A stretch of 64,000 bases of DNA from Deltaproteobacteria bacterium (GCA_040218735.1 JAVJQW010000011.1:134508-198507); one strand, 5' to 3'; positions 49,962 to 61,365 are shown, counted from the stretch's first letter. Notes: generated by a model not told the origin, from the sequence alone. Made by a program: numbers and translations.

Positions 49962-51374
49962 GTGATTGAGCTATTCCGACCGTCGGTGAGAAGCGCGACG
50001 ATCGCGGTAGTCCTGCCCCTGCTCCTCCTCGCGTCCACGGCGCACGCTCAAGAAGACGACGACGGCGGGAGTGACATCGCGCCAAGCCTTCCTCCGATCG
50101 AAGACGAAGAGTCCGATCCGGCGCTCGACGAGATTTACGATCGCCTCGACGAGATCGAGGAACGCCTCAACGGTCCCGACCCGTCGACGTACGCGATCCG
50201 TGGAATCGAAGTGGACCTGAACGGCTACGTCGACTTCGGCTTCTTCGTTCCGATCGGCAACGACGGTGTCGGTTGGGTGCAGGACTTCGGCAACGCCGCG
50301 TTCCCCGAGTACCAAGGTCAGTACGGCTGGGTCTTCCTGGGCGACATCCTCGCGACGACCGTCAACTCACGCGGTGAGGCGGCGGACCTCGGCGACGCAC
50401 CGGGCGCGAACCGATTCGACTCGATCAACTCGCGCGGCGCGCCCGGCTTCGCCGTCAACGAGTTCAACCTTCGGCTCCAAGCGGAGCTCGGCGCCGACGT
50501 CGTGCTGCGCACCAGCGTCAACTTCGTCCCCCGCACCGGCAACGAGTTCGCGCTCGGCGACTTCGTCGAAGTCGACCTCGCGGAGATGGAGTGGATCCTG
50601 ACCGAGGACGGCGGCACTTCGATCTTCGTCGGCAAGTCGCTGCCGACGTTCGGCATCGAGTACAAGATTCGGAAGTCGGATCAGCGGCGCGGCGTCACGC
50701 CGTCCTTGATCCACCGCTACACGTCGGGCTCGCAGCTCGGCCTCAAGATTCGCAGCAAGCTGCTCGACGACTGGGTCGTGCTGGCGGCGTCGGTCACGAA
50801 CAACTCGATGACGACCGAGCAGTTCCACTTCTACGACGAGATCGACAGCAACATCGGCAAGACGCTCAACGGTCGCGCGGCGGTGCGCATCCCGATCGGT
50901 CGCTTCATCTCCGCCGCCACCGGGCACACGTTGGAGATCGGCGCGTCGGGAACGTTCGGCGCGCAGGACCGCGCGCTCGATAGCGAGGACAACATGTGGT
51001 TCGTCGGCGTGGACTTCGAGTACCGCGCGACGTCCTTCGGTGTGCGCGGCCAGTGGATCCGCGGCGGCGCCCCCGGCAACCCGGAGGACGGCGTGTGGAT
51101 GCTGGACCTGAACGACTCCGGGTACGTCGAGCTCGACTGGCTCGTGTTGCCGTTCCTCGGGCTCCACGTGCGCGGCGGGATGCGCGACGCGTTCGTCGCG
51201 CTCGGGACCGAGCGCGCCTATCTCACCAAGAACTACCGCGTCACGGCGGGTGCGCAGTTCGTGTTCACCCCGCAGATCACGCTGAAGACCGAATATCTCT
51301 ACAACGGAGAGTTTGGTGGCGTGGCATCCTTTACCAACGACATCTTCACTTCGTCGTTGCTGCTGAAGTTCTGA
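49962..51374 (+). CDS. Outer-membrane beta-barrel protein (porin-like) with an acidic N-terminal region.
   Basis: Signal MIELFRPSVRSATIAVVLPLLLLASTAHA. Alternating amphipathic strands. C-terminal ...SSLLLKF with a terminal Phe. Confidence 0.65.
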   Translation: MIELFRPSVRSATIAVVLPLLLLASTAHAQEDDDGGSDIAPSLPPIEDEESDPALDEIYDRLDEIEERLNGPDPSTYAIRGIEVDLNGYVDFGFFVPIGNDGVGWVQDFGNAAFPEYQGQYGWVFLGDILATTVNSRGEAADLGDAPGANRFDSINSRGAPGFAVNEFNLRLQAELGADVVLRTSVNFVPRTGNEFALGDFVEVDLAEMEWILTEDGGTSIFVGKSLPTFGIEYKIRKSDQRRGVTPSLIHRYTSGSQLGLKIRSKLLDDWVVLAASVTNNSMTTEQFHFYDEIDSNIGKTLNGRAAVRIPIGRFISAATGHTLEIGASGTFGAQDRALDSEDNMWFVGVDFEYRATSFGVRGQWIRGGAPGNPEDGVWMLDLNDSGYVELDWLVLPFLGLHVRGGMRDAFVALGTERAYLTKNYRVTAGAQFVFTPQITLKTEYLYNGEFGGVASFTNDIFTSSLLLKF

Positions 51375-51390
51375 AGCGAGGTCATTCGAG

Positions 51391-53040
51391 ATGAAGCGCG
51401 CATACAACATCCTCGGCGCCGCGATCGTCGCGAGCGCGTTCGGGTCGACGTCTTGTGACTCGCTGTGCGGAGACGCGAGCTGCCGAATCACCGAAGCGGA
51501 GTGGACCCGCATCAGCTCGCTCGCCGGGCTCGGCGATCCGATGCCGGACCCGGTGAACAAGTACGCGGGCGTCGGCGACGTCGCCGCGGAGACACTCGGG
51601 CAGCAGTTCTACTTCGACGGTCGGTTCTCCGGCGTGTCGAGGCAGCGCGACACCCTCGGGCGCTTCGTCGGTACGGGACGTGCGCCGCTCGGTGACCAGA
51701 TCAACACGTCGTGCGCGGACTGCCACGACCCGCGCAACGGCGGCACCGACCGCACCTCGTCGCCGGGGCACGTGTCGGTCGGCGCGGGCTGGTACGACGT
51801 CAACTCGCAGGCGACGGTGAACTCGGCGTACTACCAGGTGAAGTACTGGAACGGTCGCTACGACTCCCTCGTCTGGCAGATCCTCGCGGTGAACGAGAGC
51901 GGCGTGTCGCAGAACTCGACGCGCCTCAAGGACGCGTGGCTCATCCACGACCTCTACCTCGACGCGTACAACCAGGTGTTCGGCGACGACCACCCATTCC
52001 CGTTCGACTACCGCGACGACGGCCTCACACGTTCCTCGATGATCTCCATGCTGGAGCCGGACGGGACGTGCACGTTGGTCCAGACTTCGTCGACCGCGGA
52101 CCCGACCTGCCCGCTCGAAACCACGTCCGGCCAACCGCTCTGCCACGAGGTCGACAACGGCGGAACGACGCTCTGCCTCCCGCTATGGCCGCCGAACGGT
52201 AAGCCGGGGAACAAGATCAACGGCGACACGGACTGTGACCTCGCGGCCTTCTCACCGGGTACGGATCCGCAGTCCGACAACTTCGACGCGTTCGACTGCA
52301 TGCCCGACGACAACCAGAGCGACATCACGCGGGTGTACGTGAACTTCGCGAAGGCGATCGCCGCGTACGAGTACCTGCTCGTGAGCAAGAACTCGGCGTT
52401 CGACAAGTGGGTCGAAGAAGGCGCGGACTCGGAGCTCATCTCGGCGAGCGCGCGGCGCGGGGCACGGCTGTTCGTCGGCAAGGCAGCTTGCATCGACTGT
52501 CACAACACGCCGCTGATGTCCGACGACCTGTTCCACAACATCGGCGTTCCGCAGGTCGGCGCCGCGGTGCCGACGGAGGCGGACTGCCCCGAGGGTGCGA
52601 GCTGCGACTGTGTCACGCCGGACTCGAGGAGCTGTCGAGCGTGGGGCGCCTACGGCGGGCTGTTTGCGCTGCAGGGCGGCTCGAACCGCGGCGACAACTG
52701 CGACAACGCGTTCGTCGACGCGTGCAACGACACGCGCCAGCCCTACTACGACCTGGAGATCACCGACGCCTTCAAGGGCGCGTGGCGCACGCCGTCGCTG
52801 CGTTCGGTCGCGCTGACGGCGCCGTACATGCACAGCGGTGCGCTCCAGACGCTGCAGGACGTCGTCGAGCACTACAACTACGGAGGCACCCGCGACGGCG
52901 CGGCGACCGACCAGCTCTCGGTTCGAATCGCGCCGCTCGGCCTGACGGACCGCGAGATCCTGGACCTCGTGGCGTTCCTCGAATCCCTGAACGGCGAGGC
53001 GCTCCCGCTCGACCTCGTCACCTCACCCGAGTTGCCCTGA
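51391..53040 (+). CDS. Diheme cytochrome c peroxidase family protein (CCP/MauG-like), secreted.
   Basis: Heme motifs CADCHD and CIDCHNTPLMSDDLFHNIGVPQ, the canonical CCP second-heme block. Signal peptide present. Confidence 0.8.
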   Translation: MKRAYNILGAAIVASAFGSTSCDSLCGDASCRITEAEWTRISSLAGLGDPMPDPVNKYAGVGDVAAETLGQQFYFDGRFSGVSRQRDTLGRFVGTGRAPLGDQINTSCADCHDPRNGGTDRTSSPGHVSVGAGWYDVNSQATVNSAYYQVKYWNGRYDSLVWQILAVNESGVSQNSTRLKDAWLIHDLYLDAYNQVFGDDHPFPFDYRDDGLTRSSMISMLEPDGTCTLVQTSSTADPTCPLETTSGQPLCHEVDNGGTTLCLPLWPPNGKPGNKINGDTDCDLAAFSPGTDPQSDNFDAFDCMPDDNQSDITRVYVNFAKAIAAYEYLLVSKNSAFDKWVEEGADSELISASARRGARLFVGKAACIDCHNTPLMSDDLFHNIGVPQVGAAVPTEADCPEGASCDCVTPDSRSCRAWGAYGGLFALQGGSNRGDNCDNAFVDACNDTRQPYYDLEITDAFKGAWRTPSLRSVALTAPYMHSGALQTLQDVVEHYNYGGTRDGAATDQLSVRIAPLGLTDREILDLVAFLESLNGEALPLDLVTSPELP

Positions 53041-53558
53041 TGCGAAGAACATCCTGGCTCCTGTGCGCCGCCCTCGGGTGCGCATCGTCCTCCACCTCGA
53101 ACACGATCGAGCCGGACGCACCGCGCCCGAAGGTCGGTGCGGCGTGGTTCACGATGCGCGCGCAGCAGCTCGGCGTCTCCATGACGGACGCGAAGAAACG
53201 CGACGCGACGTTCGACCCGGGGACGGTGCCGACCGACTTCTGGAACCCGGCGACGGCGACGAACACCGGCGCGGTGTGGAACGCGCTGTGCGCGGAGTGC
53301 CACGGCGGCCAGATGGATCCGGGTGACGCCGCGAAGCTCCCCGCGCCCGCGGTGGGCTGGGGCACCGGCACGGGACGCATCTTCGCGGAGGACCGCCCGC
53401 TGCCGGCGGCGTACGCGAAGATCTTCGACGGCTCCGACGACCCGAAGAAGATGCCGCCGTGGAAGGACAGACTCTCGCGCGAGCAGATCTGGGCGCTCGT
53501 GCACTTCGTCGAGCAGCTCTCGAACACCGCCTCGGCGCGTGTGTACCTCGAAAAGTAG
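53040..53558 (+). CDS. Monoheme c-type cytochrome lipoprotein.
   Basis: TGATG overlap with the CCP gene. MRRTSWLLCAALGCASS lipobox. CAECHGG. The C-terminal motif MPPWKDRLSREQIWALVHFVEQ is paralogous to the one at 44060-44740. Confidence 0.75.
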   Translation: MRRTSWLLCAALGCASSSTSNTIEPDAPRPKVGAAWFTMRAQQLGVSMTDAKKRDATFDPGTVPTDFWNPATATNTGAVWNALCAECHGGQMDPGDAAKLPAPAVGWGTGTGRIFAEDRPLPAAYAKIFDGSDDPKKMPPWKDRLSREQIWALVHFVEQLSNTASARVYLEK

Positions 53559-54458: not shown

Positions 54459-55343
54459 ATGCCGGAGCTACCGGACGTCACCGTCTACGTCGAAGCGCTC
54501 GCGGAGCGCGTGGTCGGCGAGGTGCTCGAGAAGATCCGCCTGAAGAGCCCGTTCGTCCTCCGCTCGGTGCGCCCGCGGCCGCGGGTGTTGGAGGGGAAGA
54601 CGTGCACGGGGATGCGGCGCATCGGGAAGCGCATCGTCTTCGAGTTCGAGGACGACCTCTTCCTCGTCATCCACCTGATGGTCGCGGGGCGTTTCAAGTG
54701 GGGGAAGAAGGGTGCCGCGGTGCCGGGGCGCATCGGCCTCGGTGCGTTCGACTTCGCGTCGGGCACGTTGTTGTTCACGGAGGCGAGCTCGAAGAAACGC
54801 GCGTCGATTCACGTGGTGGAGGGCGCCGAGAACCTCGCGGAGCACGACCGCGGTGGCTTGGAGGTCATGGGGGTCTCGCTCGCGGCGTTCAAGGAGCGAC
54901 TCACGCGCAAGAACCACACCCTCAAACGCGCGATGACCGACCCGCGCATCTTCTCGGGCATCGGTAACGCGTACTCCGACGAGATCCTCTTCCACGCGCA
55001 CCTGTCACCGATGAAACTCACGCAGAAGATCTCGGACGAGGAGATCGAGCGCCTGCACGCCGCGACGCAGTCCACGCTCGAACAGTGGACCCAGACGCTC
55101 CGCGACGAAGCGAAGGCCGGCTTCCCGACCAAGGTCACCGCGTTCCGCGACGAGATGGCGGTGCACGGGAAGTACAAACAGCCGTGCCCCGTGTGCGGGA
55201 ACAAGGTGCAGCGCATCGTCTACGCCGAGAACGAGACGAACTACTGCGCGACCTGTCAGAACGGCGGGAAGCTGCTGAAGGACCGGAGCCTGTCGCGGCT
55301 GCTGAAGGACGACTGGCCTAAGACGGTGGAAGATATGGAGTGA
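54459..55343 (+). CDS. Fpg/Nei-family DNA glycosylase/AP lyase (H2TH + zinc finger).
   Basis: N-terminal MPELPDV (catalytic Pro2/Glu3). C-terminal zinc finger CPVCGNKV...CATCQ. Confidence 0.8.
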   Translation: MPELPDVTVYVEALAERVVGEVLEKIRLKSPFVLRSVRPRPRVLEGKTCTGMRRIGKRIVFEFEDDLFLVIHLMVAGRFKWGKKGAAVPGRIGLGAFDFASGTLLFTEASSKKRASIHVVEGAENLAEHDRGGLEVMGVSLAAFKERLTRKNHTLKRAMTDPRIFSGIGNAYSDEILFHAHLSPMKLTQKISDEEIERLHAATQSTLEQWTQTLRDEAKAGFPTKVTAFRDEMAVHGKYKQPCPVCGNKVQRIVYAENETNYCATCQNGGKLLKDRSLSRLLKDDWPKTVEDME

Positions 55344-56954: not shown

Positions 56955-59330
56955 TTAGGACTTCGCCTTCGCCTCGCGGATCTGCGCCGCGGAGGCGAGG
57001 AGTGTGTCGTACGCGATCGTGTCGCCGCTGGTGTAGCGGCCGAAGCTCAGCACGCCGGTCGGACACATCTGCACGCACGCCGAACAGCGTACACACTCGG
57101 GGTCCTGCATCGGGAGCCCCTTGTTCGCAAAATTCATGATGTCGATGCCCTGGTGGCATACCGAGGTGCAGACGTTACAAGAGATGCACTTCTTCTTCTC
57201 GGGGAAGATCCGGAACTTCGTGAAGCGCGCGTAGATGTGCATCAGCGCCGCCAGCGGGCACGCGAAGCGGCACCACACCCGTCCGCTGAACCAGAAGTAG
57301 AAACCCACGCCGACGATGCCCGCGAGGAACAGATCCACCACGTGGTAGTAGTTGAGCTGCACGCCCGCGACCGACCACCCGGACAATAGGCCCTCGTAGA
57401 ACGTGCGCGCGGACCGCCCGAACGAAGAGTCCGGCATCCACCAGCTGATCGCACGCGCAGCGAACAGAACGAACGCCGCAAACAACACGACCTGCCCGAT
57501 CATGTTGAGGCGGTTCCACTTCGGGCCATGCGGCATCTTCGTGCGGTGGCGATCGCCGAGTGTCTCCGCGAGCGCGCCGCAGGAGCAGATCCACCCGCAG
57601 TACGCGCCCTTCCCCCAGCGCCGGATCATCAGCGGGATGATCACGAACGTCTGCACGCCGCCGATCACCAGCCACCACGTCATCGGCTCCGACGTGAAGA
57701 AGTTCCAGATGAACAATGGCCACGCGAGCACGAACCCGAACGCTCGCCAGTACTCGCGCCCGTGCGCGGACCACTGCGTCGCCGGGAACAGGTTGTCGGC
57801 GAACGTCTTGCCGAACCCGTCGTCGAACACCCCGTTGTGCCCGAGGTAGGGGAGGAGAATGTACGGCAGCAGGAACAGCGGAACGAGCTGCATCGCCATC
57901 AGCGTGAGTGTCTGCGTCTTCACATACGGCGTGCGCCGCCGCTTGATGCGGTCGATGCCGAACGCCACCACCGCGACCGAGTACGCAAGCGCGTAGTAGA
58001 AGCCGGGCTCGGTCGAGGTGATCGCAAACGTGCCGAACAACGTCTTGGGGTCCTTCGCCGCCTGGGAGATCGTCGACAAGAAGCCCTTCATCCCGAACGG
58101 GAACCACCCGTGGCTCGTGAAGTAGTCGTGGATGACGCCGCTGCCCGACTTCCAGTTGTAGACGAACACGCAGAACAGCATGAACGCCGCGAACGCCGCG
58201 ATGGACTTCGGCGTCCACTCGCCGCGGATCGGGATCTTGCTGCGGCGGAAGAAGTCGAGCGGCGCCTCGCGGCCGATCATCGCGAACACCACGTCGTTGG
58301 CGATCGTCTGCGCGTTGCCGTCGGCGTCTTGGATGCGCACGTCTTCGTCGCGCACCTCGAGGAGCTTGCTCGCCATCATCAGCTGGATGCCGCCGCGGTG
58401 CGTCCCGCCCGCGAGCCCGGCGCCCATCGCGGAGTTCACACGGTCGGAGACCGGGTTCTCGATGTCGACCTGCGCTTCCGGGTCGCGCCGGAACGTCTCG
58501 AGTTTTTCGATATTCTCCGGCTTGGGTCTGGAGAACTCAGGTTTTCGATAAGACAGCGTGACGTTCGCGCCGACCATCGCCAACGCGATCGCACTCTCCA
58601 ACGCAGAGTCACCGCCACCCACGATGAGTACGTTCTTGTCCGCGTACTCACGCGGGTCATAGAGCCGGTGATAGACCTTGTCCTTGTCCTGCCCGGGGAC
58701 GCCGAGGCGTCGGTAGTTACCACTGCGCCCGATACCGATGATAACCCGCTGCGCGCGCGTGACCTTCGCCTCGCCCTTACCACCGTGCACGACCTCGAGC
58801 ACGTCGCCCTTCTTCTCGACGCGATCGATGTGCGCCGCGACGGGCTCCACGCCCGCCTCCTCCTTCTGCCTCTCGAGCTCCGCGAGGAGGTCCTCTTTGA
58901 CGTCCGCCGTGAACTGCAGATCACCCGCCGGCGTCATGTCCGTCGGGTAGGTGAAGATCGGTTTGCCCTTCGGGAAGTTGACGATCGTGTTGAACGCCTC
59001 CGCGGCCTCGTAGACCACGAAGCTCAACCCCGCCTTCTTCGCCTCGACCGCCGCCGCGATCCCCGACACGCCCGCGCCGACGATCACGAGGTCCTTCACC
59101 CCCTTGCCGCCCTTCCCTTTCGAGAAGCCCGGCTCTTCGAGGATGGCCTGCACGGCGCGCGCGCCGGTGTGCGCGGAGAACTTCAGCAGCGGGATGCCGG
59201 TGAGATCGCCCACGATGCGCACGCCGGGCACCGCGGTCACGCCGTCCTCGCCGACCTCCGGCATCTTCTCCACGTGCCCCGCCGGCCAGCGGGTGTGGAG
59301 CCAGTGCATGTAACGCGCGAGGGGGTTCAT
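56955..59330 (-). CDS. Fusion protein. An N-terminal FAD/NAD(P)-binding pyridine-nucleotide-disulfide oxidoreductase-like domain is joined to a NapH/MauN/CcoG-type multi-TM polyferredoxin with two C-terminal 4Fe-4S motifs.
   Basis: Rossmann motifs VIVGAGVSGIAAAVEAKKAG and VLIVGGGDSALESAIALA. Membrane motifs YCGWICSCGALAE and WCRFACPLAALMH (CxxCxxxCP-type). Ferredoxin motifs CISCNVCTSVC and CVRCSACVQMCPTG. Confidence 0.7.
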   Translation of the reverse strand: MNPLARYMHWLHTRWPAGHVEKMPEVGEDGVTAVPGVRIVGDLTGIPLLKFSAHTGARAVQAILEEPGFSKGKGGKGVKDLVIVGAGVSGIAAAVEAKKAGLSFVVYEAAEAFNTIVNFPKGKPIFTYPTDMTPAGDLQFTADVKEDLLAELERQKEEAGVEPVAAHIDRVEKKGDVLEVVHGGKGEAKVTRAQRVIIGIGRSGNYRRLGVPGQDKDKVYHRLYDPREYADKNVLIVGGGDSALESAIALAMVGANVTLSYRKPEFSRPKPENIEKLETFRRDPEAQVDIENPVSDRVNSAMGAGLAGGTHRGGIQLMMASKLLEVRDEDVRIQDADGNAQTIANDVVFAMIGREAPLDFFRRSKIPIRGEWTPKSIAAFAAFMLFCVFVYNWKSGSGVIHDYFTSHGWFPFGMKGFLSTISQAAKDPKTLFGTFAITSTEPGFYYALAYSVAVVAFGIDRIKRRRTPYVKTQTLTLMAMQLVPLFLLPYILLPYLGHNGVFDDGFGKTFADNLFPATQWSAHGREYWRAFGFVLAWPLFIWNFFTSEPMTWWLVIGGVQTFVIIPLMIRRWGKGAYCGWICSCGALAETLGDRHRTKMPHGPKWNRLNMIGQVVLFAAFVLFAARAISWWMPDSSFGRSARTFYEGLLSGWSVAGVQLNYYHVVDLFLAGIVGVGFYFWFSGRVWCRFACPLAALMHIYARFTKFRIFPEKKKCISCNVCTSVCHQGIDIMNFANKGLPMQDPECVRCSACVQMCPTGVLSFGRYTSGDTIAYDTLLASAAQIREAKAKS
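57081..57133. repeat. Direct repeat copy B. The intact coding copy, encoding ...IMNFANKGLPMQDPECVRC of the flavo-ferredoxin.
   Basis: See copy A. Confidence 0.8.
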
Positions 59331-59383: not shown

Positions 59384-60010
59384 TCAGCGGTCGCCGCCGC
59401 GCGGGGTGAGCAGCTCGTCCTCGACGGACGTGCGCACCGTCTTGTCCCGCATCGAGACCACGCGGGGCTCCGGCTCCCGCACGTCGTCCGTGAGGTCCGA
59501 CGCGATGCCGGCGCGCGAGCGGTGACGGAGCAGCGAGTGCATCTGCGCCTCGCCGCTGCCCTCGCGCTCGCCCATCGCGTCGAGGAGCTTGCTGTGCGAC
59601 GAGATGATCGACCGGAGGCTCGCCTCGAACTGCGCCTTCTGGCGCCGCAGCTCGTCGATGTCCTCCATGATCCGCACGAGGCGTGTGTGGGCGTTCTGGA
59701 TGATCTGCTCCGCCTGCGACTCCGCCTGCGCGATGACGATCTCCGCCTCTTTGCGCGCGTTGTGTTTGATGTCCTCGGTGATCTGCGTCGCGGTGATCAT
59801 CGTCTCCTTGAGCGTGCGTTCACGCTCGCGGTGCTCGTGGATCTCCGCCTCCTTGCGCTTGAGGTCTTCGCGCAGGCCGTTGTTGTCACGCACCAGCCGC
59901 TCGACGTCGTTCGCGAGGACGTCCAGGAACGCGTCGACCTCGCGCGTGTCGAAGCCCCACAGCGTCGTCCGGAACTGCTGCTGCTGAATGTCCAGCGGGG
60001 TGAGCTTCAT
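59384..60010 (-). CDS. divIVA: DivIVA-domain protein.
   Basis: MKLTPLDIQQQQFRTTLWGFDTREVDAFLDVLANDVERL is the canonical DivIVA N-terminus, followed by a coiled coil. Confidence 0.8.
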   Translation of the reverse strand: MKLTPLDIQQQQFRTTLWGFDTREVDAFLDVLANDVERLVRDNNGLREDLKRKEAEIHEHRERERTLKETMITATQITEDIKHNARKEAEIVIAQAESQAEQIIQNAHTRLVRIMEDIDELRRQKAQFEASLRSIISSHSKLLDAMGEREGSGEAQMHSLLRHRSRAGIASDLTDDVREPEPRVVSMRDKTVRTSVEDELLTPRGGDR

Positions 60011-60061
60011 GGCGGCCAATGTAGCCGCGCGCGCCGGACCCCGCAAACTTCGTGCGCGCGG

Positions 60062-60724
60062 TCAGGTCTGACGCGCGCCGAACACCGCCGTCCCCACCCG
60101 CACGAGCGTCGCCCCCTCCTCGATCGCCGCCTCGAAGTCCGAGCTCATCCCCATCGAGAGCACCGGGAGGGGCGCCTGGACGCGGCCTTCCAGGTCCGCC
60201 GCCAACGCCCGTAACGCCGCGAACGCGGCCCGGGTCACCCCCCGCGGCGGGATGCACATCAGGCCCCTCGGGACCACGTTCGGGAGCGCCAGCGCGGCCC
60301 GGATCAGGGCTTCGGCCCCCGCCGGCGCGACCCCGGACTTGGCGTCCTCGCCCTCGGTGTTCACCTGGACGAGGACCTCCAGCGGGGCCCCCTCCCGGGC
60401 GTCCGAGAGGCGGCGCAGGAGCTTTTCGCTGTCGATGGTGTGAACGACGTCCGCCACCGCCGCGCGCTTCGCCTTGTTGGACTGCACGTTGCCGATCAGG
60501 TGCCACCGCGCGTCGTCCGGCAGGAGCGAACGTTTGCGCTCGAACTCCTGCACGAAGTTCTCCCCGAAGTCGCGCTGCCCGGCCGCGTACGCCGCCCTCA
60601 AGGACGCGTCCGGCTGGCGCTTGCTGACCGCGACGAGCGTGACCTCCGCCGCGTCCCGCCCCGCGCGCGCACACGCGTCGGCGATGCGCGCGTTCACCTC
60701 GGCGAGCGACGCCGCGACCGTCAC
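60062..60724 (-). CDS. yggS: YggS-family pyridoxal-phosphate homeostasis protein (alanine-racemase-N fold).
   Basis: VTLVAVSKRQP...WHLIGNVQSNKAK...LSMGMSSDFEAAIEEGATLVRVGTAVFG. Confidence 0.88.
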   Translation of the reverse strand: MTVAASLAEVNARIADACARAGRDAAEVTLVAVSKRQPDASLRAAYAAGQRDFGENFVQEFERKRSLLPDDARWHLIGNVQSNKAKRAAVADVVHTIDSEKLLRRLSDAREGAPLEVLVQVNTEGEDAKSGVAPAGAEALIRAALALPNVVPRGLMCIPPRGVTRAAFAALRALAADLEGRVQAPLPVLSMGMSSDFEAAIEEGATLVRVGTAVFGARQT

Positions 60725-61272
60725 ACCAACCCTCGCTTCGCGAGCAGCGCGAGGGTCTCCTCGAGCGGCAGCCCCACCACGTTCGTGTAGCTCCCGCGCA
60801 CTTCGGCGACGAGCGCGCCGCCCTCGCCCTGGATGCCGTAGGCGCCGGCCTTGTCCATCGGCTCGCCGGTCGCGACGTAGCGATCGATCTCCGCCGACGA
60901 CAGCACGCGAAACCGCACCGCGGTGGTGACCAAGAGCTCTTCGACCTGCCCGCCCACCGCGAGCACCACCGCCGTGTGGACCACGTGAGATTCGCCGGAG
61001 AGCTTCGCGAGCGTACGCTTCGCGTCGTCGATGTCCTCGGCCTTCCCGAGGATCGCGTCCCCCAGCGCAACCACGGTGTCGGCGGCGAGCACCGGCTGAG
61101 CGAGCCCGTGCGCGAGCGCCTTGTCGCGCGCGACGCGTAGCGCGTAGGCGTCCGGCGCTTCGCCCTCGCGGGGGGTCTCGTCGACGTCCGCCGGACGTAC
61201 CTCGATCGCCACGCCCGCCGCGGTGAGGAGGTGGCGACGACGCGGCGATGCGGAGGCGAGGACGAGGGTCAC
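60721..61272 (-). CDS. maf: Maf-family nucleoside-triphosphate pyrophosphatase (septum-formation protein Maf).
   Basis: GTG start gives VTLVLASASPRRRHLL. DTVVALGDAILGK. AGAYGIQG. Overlaps yggS by 4 nt. The Arg-rich upstream extension of the track ORF is rejected. Confidence 0.8.
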   Translation of the reverse strand: MTLVLASASPRRRHLLTAAGVAIEVRPADVDETPREGEAPDAYALRVARDKALAHGLAQPVLAADTVVALGDAILGKAEDIDDAKRTLAKLSGESHVVHTAVVLAVGGQVEELLVTTAVRFRVLSSAEIDRYVATGEPMDKAGAYGIQGEGGALVAEVRGSYTNVVGLPLEETLALLAKRGLV

Positions 61273-61365
61273 GCGTCCACGAAATCGCACCTTTTGTTCG
61301 TGCGCACCAGACGAGAATCCCGCGCGGGAGAACACAGCGAGGTTTCCTGCTACGTTCCCAGTCGC

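Follow-up and report, generated by a model that had tools for sequence, protein, structure and literature searches.

The stretch of Deltaproteobacteria DNA analysed here (64,000 nucleotides, referred to below as the window) encodes, in a single polypeptide, a flavin oxidoreductase joined to a NapH-type membrane polyferredoxin. Judging from its sequence and from those of its relatives, this fusion protein is very probably a reductase that takes electrons from NAD(P)H and passes them through iron-sulfur (FeS) clusters to a site at the membrane. The more complete reading, a self-contained and membrane-anchored chain from NAD(P)H to flavin adenine dinucleotide (FAD), to FeS clusters and to a membrane site, with quinone as the likeliest acceptor, is a proposal that we regard as evenly balanced.

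The fusion had already been proposed in a first-pass annotation of the window, and the gene bears it out (Table 1). An identical 791-aa protein is called in three independent assemblies (a JGI contig of 11.5 Mb, NCBI GCA_040216985.1 and a Logan assembly), with an uninterrupted reading frame and no split in any of them; an artificial fusion of two genes by a frameshift or an assembly error is therefore excluded, and full-length homologues number in the thousands. The G+C content around the gene (~65-67%) matches the remainder of the window, whose source is given by NCBI as a deltaproteobacterial, myxobacterial-type metagenome-assembled genome. Domain searches returned the expected families on both halves. 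On the flavoprotein side, Pfam gave Pyr_redox_3 at residues 82-367 (8.5e-30), together with Pyr_redox_2 and Pyr_redox, and the best NCBIfam model was YpdA/Bdr (residues 80-267, 1e-35); on the membrane side, two Fer4_5 stretches and a ferredoxin domain (Fer4_21, Fer4_10 and Fer4_7 at residues 711-760) were found, and the best NCBIfam model was NapH/MauN (residues 534-763, 2e-15).

The whole FAD/NAD(P)H module spans residues ~22-372, and the two Rossmann motifs noticed at first, G85-A-G-V-S-G90 and G238-G-G-D-S-A243, are both present. By sequence and by fold the closest solved structures are those of YpdA/Bdr (7a76, with E 4e-24, and 7a7b), followed among PDB entries by low-molecular-weight thioredoxin reductases (TrxR) and by TrxR-type ferredoxin-NADP+ reductases (FNRs), namely 2zbw, 3ab1, 5twb and 6gas. 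Folds were compared by a Foldseek search with an AlphaFold2 model (mean predicted local distance difference test, pLDDT, of 73.9), and the best E of 1e-15 assigns the N-terminal domain to the flavin-binding YpdA/TrxR fold. The label of pyridine-nucleotide-disulfide oxidoreductase, given to this half in the first-pass annotation, needs correction: the protein contains 14 cysteines, none of them within residues 1-386, so that dithiol chemistry of the TrxR type is impossible in the flavoprotein. The redox CxxC is absent, and the low-molecular-weight thioredoxin reductase model TIGR01292 scores 66 bits against a cutoff of 343. YpdA uses NADPH, and a study of its structure argues against catalysis by Cys14, for which other phyla have a different residue (bioRxiv 10.1101/2020.12.02.408641); this cysteine (GGGPCG) aligns with Ser89 of the fusion protein (GAGVSG). 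Since the segment S260-Y-R262...R268 aligns with the YR/HRR segment of NADPH-dependent relatives (YpdA and 2zbw), NADPH is probably preferred over NADH.

The likeness to YpdA raises the alternative of a membrane-anchored reductase of low-molecular-weight (bacillithiol-type) disulfides, working directly through its flavin as proposed for YpdA, with the FeS/membrane part as an alternative electron source or a regulator. YpdA/Bdr is the nearest family by sequence and fold, the lack of cysteine is compatible with a non-catalytic Cys14, and some neighbouring genes are of stress type (a divergent Fpg/Nei glycosylase in 14 loci, extracytoplasmic function (ECF) sigma factors with anti-sigma factors, and AhpC/Redoxin beside the unfused form described below). 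However, the YpdA model TIGR04018 gives 123-134 bits where its cutoff is 339.9, the topology is permuted and thus unlike that of YpdA, and three invariant FeS/Cys sites and six transmembrane (TM) helices would be left without a role; moreover the unfused relatives are paired with a flavoprotein of the ferredoxin-reductase type, not of the YpdA type. We consider this alternative very improbable.

The flavoprotein is circularly permuted, with its FAD-binding 'GD' element lying before the first Rossmann motif. In flavoproteins of the TrxR fold this element is usually C-terminal. In the fusion protein ~78 residues precede the first GxGxxG, and residues 30-66 read VPGVRIVGD42LTG...HTGARAVQAIL, modelled as a strand (37-41) and a helix (49-65) at pLDDT 87-90; the Pyr_redox_3 and Pyr_redox_2 alignments, in turn, end before the C-termini of the profiles, where the GD motif sits. 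We de-permuted the module in silico by moving residues 22-77 behind residue 372, using one composition-matched shuffle as the control. The alignment to Pyr_redox_3 was extended from positions 1-279 to 1-305 of 305 (109.4 bits for the core, 113.5 de-permuted and 108.5 shuffled, the last again over 1-279), and that to Pyr_redox_2 from 1-187 to 1-281 of 291 (74.0, 84.8 and 73.8 bits, the shuffled sequence covering 1-187). The corresponding scores were 127.7, 133.8 and 127.1 bits for YpdA (TIGR04018), 70.9, 77.1 and 70.1 for TrxR (TIGR01292), and 38.4, 56.4 and 38.3 for lipoamide dehydrogenase (TIGR01350). The gain is 4-18 bits over the five profiles, and the shuffled control gained nothing. A weak HMMER alignment was also found between residues 30-47 and the GD motif of 2zbw (residues 275-292); with the N-terminal peptide alone, phmmer against PDB and Pfam on residues 1-77 returned no match. 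Distant fused relatives carry a more canonical GD motif ahead of GxGxxG, for example SSVRGVYIIGDLA. The permutation is a family-wide trait, and from this order of elements, together with the de-permutation gains, it follows that the fusion is not a plain end-to-end concatenation.

In the membrane half, six TM helices, with the N-terminus and the C-terminus on the inner side, are supported alike by the AlphaFold2 model, by hydropathy and by the positive-inside rule, in line with the minimum of six counted in the first-pass annotation. A seven-helix topology suggested by hydropathy was rejected: the model folds residues 527-545 into a pair of short helices, and six TM helices satisfy the positive-inside rule. 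Lysine and arginine amount to 0.13-0.67 per residue in the predicted cytoplasmic segments vs 0.06-0.07 in the predicted outer loops, a distribution that, over the six-helix model, places the flavoprotein, Cys motif 1, Cys motif 2 and the ferredoxin domain all on the cytoplasmic side; the Rossmann domain is thus predicted where it had been supposed to lie. The cysteine motifs need to be redescribed. What had been taken for a pair of CxxCxxxCP motifs in the membrane part is in fact C578-x3-C582-x-C584 (CGWICSC, without proline) and C687-x3-C691-P, and of the two ferredoxin motifs presented as classical CxxCxxCxxxCP, the second (C746...C756-P) is canonical, whereas the first ends in C725-H instead of C-P.

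The FeS clusters of NapH sit at the cytoplasmic face, and exported polyferredoxins need an extra TM domain, dependent on twin-arginine translocation (Tat) and carrying a twin-arginine motif (PMC5449189). A Tat-exported ferredoxin domain, as in NapH-NapG fusions, was rejected for the fusion protein, where neither an extra TM domain nor a twin-arginine motif follows Cys motif 2. Across 50 homologues no variation occurs in any of the 14 cysteines, in the periplasmic loops or in the N-terminal W-L-H-T-x-W-P-A-G motif; that motif and C387, in the middle of TM1, are two invariant features without an assigned role. The same alignment holds no conserved bis-His pairs in the TM helices with which haems could be bound, so that no obvious route for electrons across the membrane exists. 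By PDB profile search no solved structure was found for the membrane module, matches being confined to the ferredoxin domain.

Relatives of the membrane half also occur unfused. Two of them (P0240 and P0259; 31-33% identity, E 2e-40) share with the fusion protein the unusual CxWxCxCGxLAETLGD motif, and each of their genes is overlapped by 1-4 bp by an upstream gene encoding a flavoprotein of 435-448 aa, with which it is translationally coupled. This flavoprotein belongs to the ferredoxin/rubredoxin-NAD+ reductase class (best models PadH, AndAa, HcaD and NorW) and is not homologous to the flavoprotein module of the window (BLASTP E 0.12), suggesting that the NapH-like clade recruited as donor a pyridine-nucleotide flavoprotein, of a kind known to reduce FeS proteins, twice and independently. 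This double recruitment is the strongest indirect evidence for a flow of electrons from NAD(P)H through flavin to the polyferredoxin. Because their flavoprotein is non-homologous, the split relatives are ruled out as the ancestor of the fusion. In the split form (L088/L089:5100-8047) the flavoprotein/NapH-like pair is preceded, ~100 bp upstream and in the same orientation, by an AhpC/TSA-Redoxin gene.

From these elements it is possible to propose a path. NAD(P)H, probably as NADPH, would reduce FAD in the permuted YpdA/TrxR-fold module, which would act as a TrxR-type FNR; FAD would then give single electrons to the two [4Fe-4S] clusters presumed to be loaded in the in-cis ferredoxin domain, and from there they would reach the site made by both Cys motifs next to the membrane, where the NapH-type helix bundle faces the cytoplasm, and finally an acceptor in or at the membrane, the quinone pool being the likeliest by analogy with NapH. 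The first-pass annotation had suggested that cytoplasmic NAD(P)H might be coupled to a membrane acceptor, and this idea finds indirect support in the one-sided topology and in the flavoprotein-coupled unfused relatives. With NAD(P)H as the donor the direction towards quinone would be exergonic, and a non-canonical NAD(P)H:quinone oxidoreductase is therefore favoured, a tentative assignment to which we give somewhat less than an even chance.

Several points weigh against this proposal. The quinone site of NapH-type proteins is itself only a proposal, and the chemistry of CX3CP is unassigned (PMC5928378). The model is poor for the ferredoxin domain and for the geometry between FAD and FeS, and the permutation test depends on one shuffled control, although the distant fused relatives support the permutation independently. 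The periplasmic loops are conserved as strongly as the cofactor sites, are not obviously needed by a simple quinone reductase and could be a sign of a partner in the periplasm. Roughly one locus in four has DUF547, GT2, ArsS, ArsM or TIGR04282 genes nearby, a hint that the acceptor is more specialised in some lineages at least. Because of the loops and of the DUF547/GT2/ArsS context, a more specialised or extracytoplasmic acceptor has to be kept in mind, although we consider it unlikely.

The electrons could also be destined for a metal. CcoG is a specific cupric reductase working through two [4Fe-4S] clusters, with an unknown donor, and its homologues are found also where cbb3 oxidase is absent (PMC7558416). 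The fusion protein could similarly be a cytoplasmic metal reductase, for instance of Cu(II), with its donor built in: it shares with CcoG the polyferredoxin superfamily, the membrane-proximal Cys motifs and the 2x[4Fe-4S] domain, and the additional invariant Cys584 and Cys387 could add to a metal site. On the other hand, no CcoG/FixG model is among the NCBIfam matches of the membrane half at E<=1e-5, the C-terminal periplasmic immunoglobulin (Ig)-like domain of CcoG is absent, and ccoNOQP, ccoHIS, copA and copZ are absent from all neighbourhoods examined. We regard a metal reductase as improbable, and a reductase of a membrane site remains our preferred interpretation.

The fusion is not rare. 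Among 5.8 billion proteins a word-indexed search found 3703 matches at E<=1e-10, the best 120 of which are all full-length (747-839 aa, 62-81% identity). Full-length relatives at 58-67% identity were found in at least 549 genomes, one genome being scanned per GTDB species, and in at least 11 phyla; the groups among the matches listed include Myxococcota, Acidobacteriota (with Thermoanaerobaculia), Verrucomicrobiota, Planctomycetota, Gemmatimonadota, Latescibacterota, Thermodesulfobacteriota, Bacteroidota, Ignavibacteriales, Caldithrix and Eremiobacterota. With the membrane half as the query, an exhaustive HMMER search returned 169 representatives at E<=1e-30 and 523 at E<=1e-10, and the fusion is retained even at 31-46% identity, such relatives keeping the Pyr_redox_3 N-terminus. 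One 680-aa relative (P0126) has the membrane half at its N-terminus (residues 1-386) followed by ~290 unexplained residues, and represents either another architecture or a mis-called gene. In NCBI these proteins go by no other name than 'NAD(P)-binding domain-containing protein', and JGI labels them 'thioredoxin reductase/polyferredoxin' or 'NosR/NirI family...'; on the fusion protein every curated NCBIfam model stays below its cutoff, and no description of a fusion of a cytosolic NAD(P)H/FAD module to NapH was found in the literature searched. The family is ancient, widespread and highly conserved, and is present in databases under generic names but uncharacterised.

Table 1. Position of the fusion gene, of the elements of its product and of the neighbouring genes in the window (res, residues of the fusion protein; ORF, open reading frame)
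Feature	Position	Strand	Basis
Flavoprotein-polyferredoxin fusion; complete ORF, 791 aa + stop, ATG start	56955..59330	-	ORF calling
N-terminal motif W10-L-H-T-x-W-P-A-G18, res 7-21	59268..59312	-	invariant in 50 homologues; modelled poorly, pLDDT 41-54
Displaced FAD-binding 'GD' element, res 30-66: VPGVRIVGD42 strand and helix 49-65	59133..59243	-	invariant G36, G41, D42; model
YpdA/TrxR-like core with two dinucleotide-binding parts, res 78-372: FAD GxGxxG 85-90, NAD(P)H GGGDSA 238-243, then S260-Y-R262...R268	58215..59099	-	profiles, PDB alignment, fold match
Predicted TM1-TM3 (374-394, 442-464, 468-498) with periplasmic loop 395-441; res 374-498	57837..58211	-	hydropathy, model, positive-inside rule
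Aromatic-rich periplasmic or re-entrant loop, res 499-550 (G500...D512, R525-E-Y-W-R529, A536-W-P-L-F-x-W-N543), highly conserved	57681..57836	-	homologue alignment, model
Predicted TM4-TM6 of NapH-like core (551-572, 609-631, 661-680), cytoplasmic loop 573-608, periplasmic loop 632-660; res 551-680	57291..57680	-	NCBIfam, model
Cys motif 1, res 577-593, Y-C578-G-W-I-C582-S-C584-G-A-L-A-E-T-L-G-D (CxxxCxC), predicted cytoplasmic, just after TM4	57552..57602	-	invariant; Fer4_5
Cys motif 2, res 684-697, R-V-W-C687-R-F-A-C691-P-L-A-A-L-M (CxxxCP), predicted cytoplasmic, just after TM6	57240..57281	-	Pfam, invariance
2x[4Fe-4S] ferredoxin domain, res 711-765, C715/718/721/725 and C746/749/752/756, predicted cytoplasmic	57036..57200	-	Pfam, PDB profile matches, topology
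Maf - YggS (pyridoxal phosphate-binding) - DivIVA, directly upstream; DivIVA-fusion gap 53 bp	59384-61335	-	
Small Cys-rich lipoprotein-like ORF, convergent with the fusion gene; the ORF has 169 aa, the called gene 145 aa	56430-56939	+	
Fpg/Nei-family DNA glycosylase, below NCBIfam Fpg cutoffs, 1.6 kb from the fusion gene	54459-55343	+	
Porin-like ORF (470 aa, signal peptide), CCP_MauG-type di-haem peroxidase-like lipoprotein (549 aa), cytochrome c (172 aa)	49962-53558	+	

Gene context was evaluated statistically on the 80 best-matching loci, mostly contigs of metagenome-assembled genomes and some of them incomplete, and 82 loci were examined overall. No constant gene partner was found across the 82, which fits a stand-alone enzyme. 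In the window the Maf, YggS and DivIVA genes are possibly co-transcribed with the fusion gene; a functional link to them, or to the CCP_MauG-type and cytochrome c genes, was rejected, as these, like the porin-like ORF of the same string, recur only in a 91%-identical relative (L008). The Cys-rich lipoprotein-like ORF matches no significant Pfam family and has no homologue in the other loci. The Fpg/Nei glycosylase gene is divergently adjacent to the fusion gene (38-670 bp) in 14 loci of Acidobacteriota/Thermoanaerobaculia and lies 1.0-1.6 kb off in the window and in L008; this adjacency could reflect a shared stress-responsive promoter region, or mere lineage synteny. An ECF sigma factor with a putative anti-sigma factor is near the fusion gene in 10 loci and hints at envelope- or oxidative-stress regulation; in L054, L079, L083, L057, L043, L051 and L055 (Chthoniobacteraceae and Thermodesulfobacteriota) the pair lies upstream on the same strand. 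DUF3179 is the immediately preceding gene, 39-217 bp upstream and in the same orientation, in six loci (L042, L053, L056, L062, L065 and L072) of Latescibacterota and Gemmatimonadota; the protein has both a signal peptide and a C-terminal sorting domain of the type IX secretion system (T9SS).

A further set of neighbours would fit a different role, that of a dedicated supplier of low-potential electrons to biosynthesis at the membrane or in the periplasm, either radical-SAM/ArsM/TIGR04282 chemistry with polyprenyl-phosphate-sugar glycosylation, or a periplasmic DUF547 protein with a CxxxxCP motif. DUF547 genes are near the fusion gene in 12-13 loci of at least six phyla, mostly adjacent and on the same strand (L025, L036, L044, L051, L055, L056, L058, L063, L072, L075, L076, L078 and L090). 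Their products begin with a signal or lipoprotein leader and share an invariant R-[IV]-H-x-A-[LI]-x-C-A-x-x-x-C-P, a feature compatible with a dithiol in the periplasm or with a site that binds metalloids. An AglJ/Dpm1-like GT2 is nearby in 9-11 loci and ArsS in six, above its NCBIfam cutoff (447 vs 300); a Chitinophagales locus holds a TIGR04282 'arsenosugar' transferase, also above cutoff (205 vs 134), and a GT87-like GT-C. Such genes form same-strand strings with the fusion, GH15-like - DUF547 - fusion - GT2 in Thermodesulfobacteriota and ArsS ... DUF547 - fusion - GT2 - GT-C - TIGR04282 in Chitinophagales, and the split locus L090 brings together GH15, a 1012-aa protein with radical-SAM and ArsM-like parts, the flavoprotein, the NapH-like gene, GT87, GT2 and DUF547. 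At least one gene of the DUF547, AglJ-like GT2, GH15-like, GT87-like, ArsS and TIGR04282 set lies within 10 kb in 21 of ~80 fused loci, from at least seven phyla.

Three quarters of the loci, however, lack such genes nearby, and none of the set is present in the 64-kb window. In four loci of Acidobacteriota/Eremiobacterota ArsS is convergent and hence outside the operon, and its reaction may be redox-neutral (PMC13598754). A carrier of electrons across the membrane is not evident, conserved bis-His pairs being absent from the TM helices, and the 'arsenosugar' names, carried over from one cyanobacterial enzyme, are putative in these phyla. Supply of such a biosynthesis is in our view an unlikely role, and we retain electron delivery to a membrane site as the general function. 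Independently of this question, L090:557-11966 and L076:6484-15055 group a radical-SAM gene (ArsS, or the 1012-aa protein with radical-SAM, ArsM-like and MbdU-like parts) with TIGR04282, AglJ-like GT2, GT87-like GT-C, GH15 and DUF547, plus the split or fused flavo-polyferredoxin, and look like an undescribed extended 'arsenosugar/rSAM-selenodomain' neighbourhood.

Not being unique to this genome, the fusion is of interest for its age, its spread, its unusual conservation and its permutation. A bolder hypothesis, which we hold with little confidence, is that the family constitutes an unrecognised class of NAD(P)H dehydrogenase on an FeS-only NapH-type module, either feeding the quinone pool or reducing extracytoplasmic partners such as DUF547. 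In the first case, Acidobacteriota, Verrucomicrobiota, Planctomycetota, Gemmatimonadota and Myxococcota would possess in it a third or fourth type of respiratory NAD(P)H:quinone oxidoreductase; in the second, it would be an FeS-based functional analogue of the DsbD route of reductant export, with a link in certain lineages to the biosynthesis of organoarsenicals or glycolipids. The carriers are bacterial groups that dominate soils and sediments and are biochemically little studied, so that a defined function would annotate hundreds to thousands of genomes and could uncover an unrecognised entry of NAD(P)H electrons into the membrane. Polyferredoxins of the NapH, NosR, CcoG and RdhC types are common, but their donors, the role of CX3CP and their reactivity with quinone are unsettled; with its built-in NAD(P)H/FAD donor, the fusion protein would be a convenient single-polypeptide model for the passage of electrons through modules of the NapH type. 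Several 'domains of unknown function' also become more accessible through the repeated association with DUF547, GT2 and ArsS/ArsM/TIGR04282.

Among known systems, NapH, NosR and RdhC have in common a module with four segments in the membrane and a pair of CX3CP motifs, proposed to be quinol-reactive (PMC5928378, PMC8238504). NapH is the quinol dehydrogenase subunit that serves periplasmic nitrate reductase in the membrane. The fusion protein resembles NapH/MauN in its four-helix core, in the cytoplasmic CxxxC(P) motif after each pair of helices and in the C-terminal 2x[4Fe-4S] domain (PMC5928378, PMC5449189), features represented by TM3-TM6, C578x3C582, C687x3C691P and two CxxCxxCxxxC motifs, with motif 1 lacking the proline and having an extra cysteine. 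NapH/MauN is the best-scoring named family for residues 534-763, yet TIGR02163 reaches 56.8-57.5 bits against a cutoff of 213 and PRK09477 (NapH) 41-43 against 234. The fusion protein differs from NapH by two additional N-terminal TM helices, by a CxxxCxC first motif and by the 372-residue cytoplasmic FAD/NAD(P)H module; electrons probably enter it from NAD(P)H, unlike NapH, which takes them from quinol. No nap or mau genes (napG, napA or a mau cluster) were found within +/-10 kb or in the 80 related loci, and there is no NapG partner.

CcoG/FixG/RdxA, NosR and RdhC(PceC) belong to the same membrane polyferredoxin superfamily and have two CX3CP-type motifs. In this superfamily the NapH-type module is joined to varied domains: Ig-like in CcoG (PMC7558416), periplasmic flavin mononucleotide (FMN) domains in NosR and RdhC (PMC5928378, PMC8238504), and NapG (PMC5449189). 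The first-pass annotation had stated that NapH-like proteins are not normally fused to flavin modules; this is too broad, since fusions to other redox domains (FMN in NosR/RdhC, NapG) are common, but it holds for a cytosolic NAD(P)H/FAD module, which is undescribed. CcoG has a periplasmic Ig-like domain, whereas the fusion protein has none and ends 26 residues past the ferredoxin domain. NosR and RdhC bear an FMN domain that lies in the periplasm and is covalently flavinylated, and the fusion protein a cytoplasmic FAD/NAD(P)H module of the non-covalent type. A regulator or accessory protein of N2O or nitrite reductase, of the NosR/NirI type, is suggested by the JGI label of several homologues and by a weak NosR match over the first Cys motif (28-31 bits); but the cutoff of that model is 1000, Pfam finds no FMN_bind on the fusion protein, the motif [S/T]G[A/S]TX[S/T] is not conserved in the periplasmic loops, and no nos, nir or rdh genes are in the neighbourhoods examined, so that this explanation is effectively refuted.

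Concerning the flavoprotein, YpdA/Bdr is closest by sequence and fold, with two Rossmann domains and the aligned NADPH-type YR signature, but YpdA is soluble and stands alone, whereas the fusion protein is permuted, has Ser89 in place of Cys14 and carries a membrane FeS module; TIGR04018 aligns in one piece over profile positions 1-188 of 316, with 123.2 bits against a cutoff of 339.9. By model scores, domain make-up and gene context the protein falls outside the NapH, CcoG, NosR, YpdA and TrxR families, although it would work in the manner of a NapH-type polyferredoxin combined with a TrxR-type FNR. TrxR-type FNRs (B. subtilis YumC 3lzw, Chlorobaculum FNR 3ab1 and T. thermophilus 2zbw) likewise have the TrxR fold without the CxxC disulfide, and by analogy with them the fusion protein probably passes NADPH electrons to an FeS protein. 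It differs in having the ferredoxin in cis and anchored to the membrane and in the permutation of the flavoprotein, and their C-terminal FAD-stacking extension is, in a cursory comparison, apparently absent from it. Finally, in the NQR/RNF-like (PMC8238504) and NOX/FRE- and eukaryotic Fre/Steap-type (PMC7558416) systems, too, a flavin domain that oxidises NAD(P)H in the cytosol is connected to a redox module in the membrane; however, their folds and cofactors are unrelated, NQR/RNF and NOX/FRE doing so with haems or NqrB/RnfD-type domains and a dehydrogenase of the FNR fold (PF00175), while the fusion protein combines FeS clusters with a flavoprotein of the TrxR fold.

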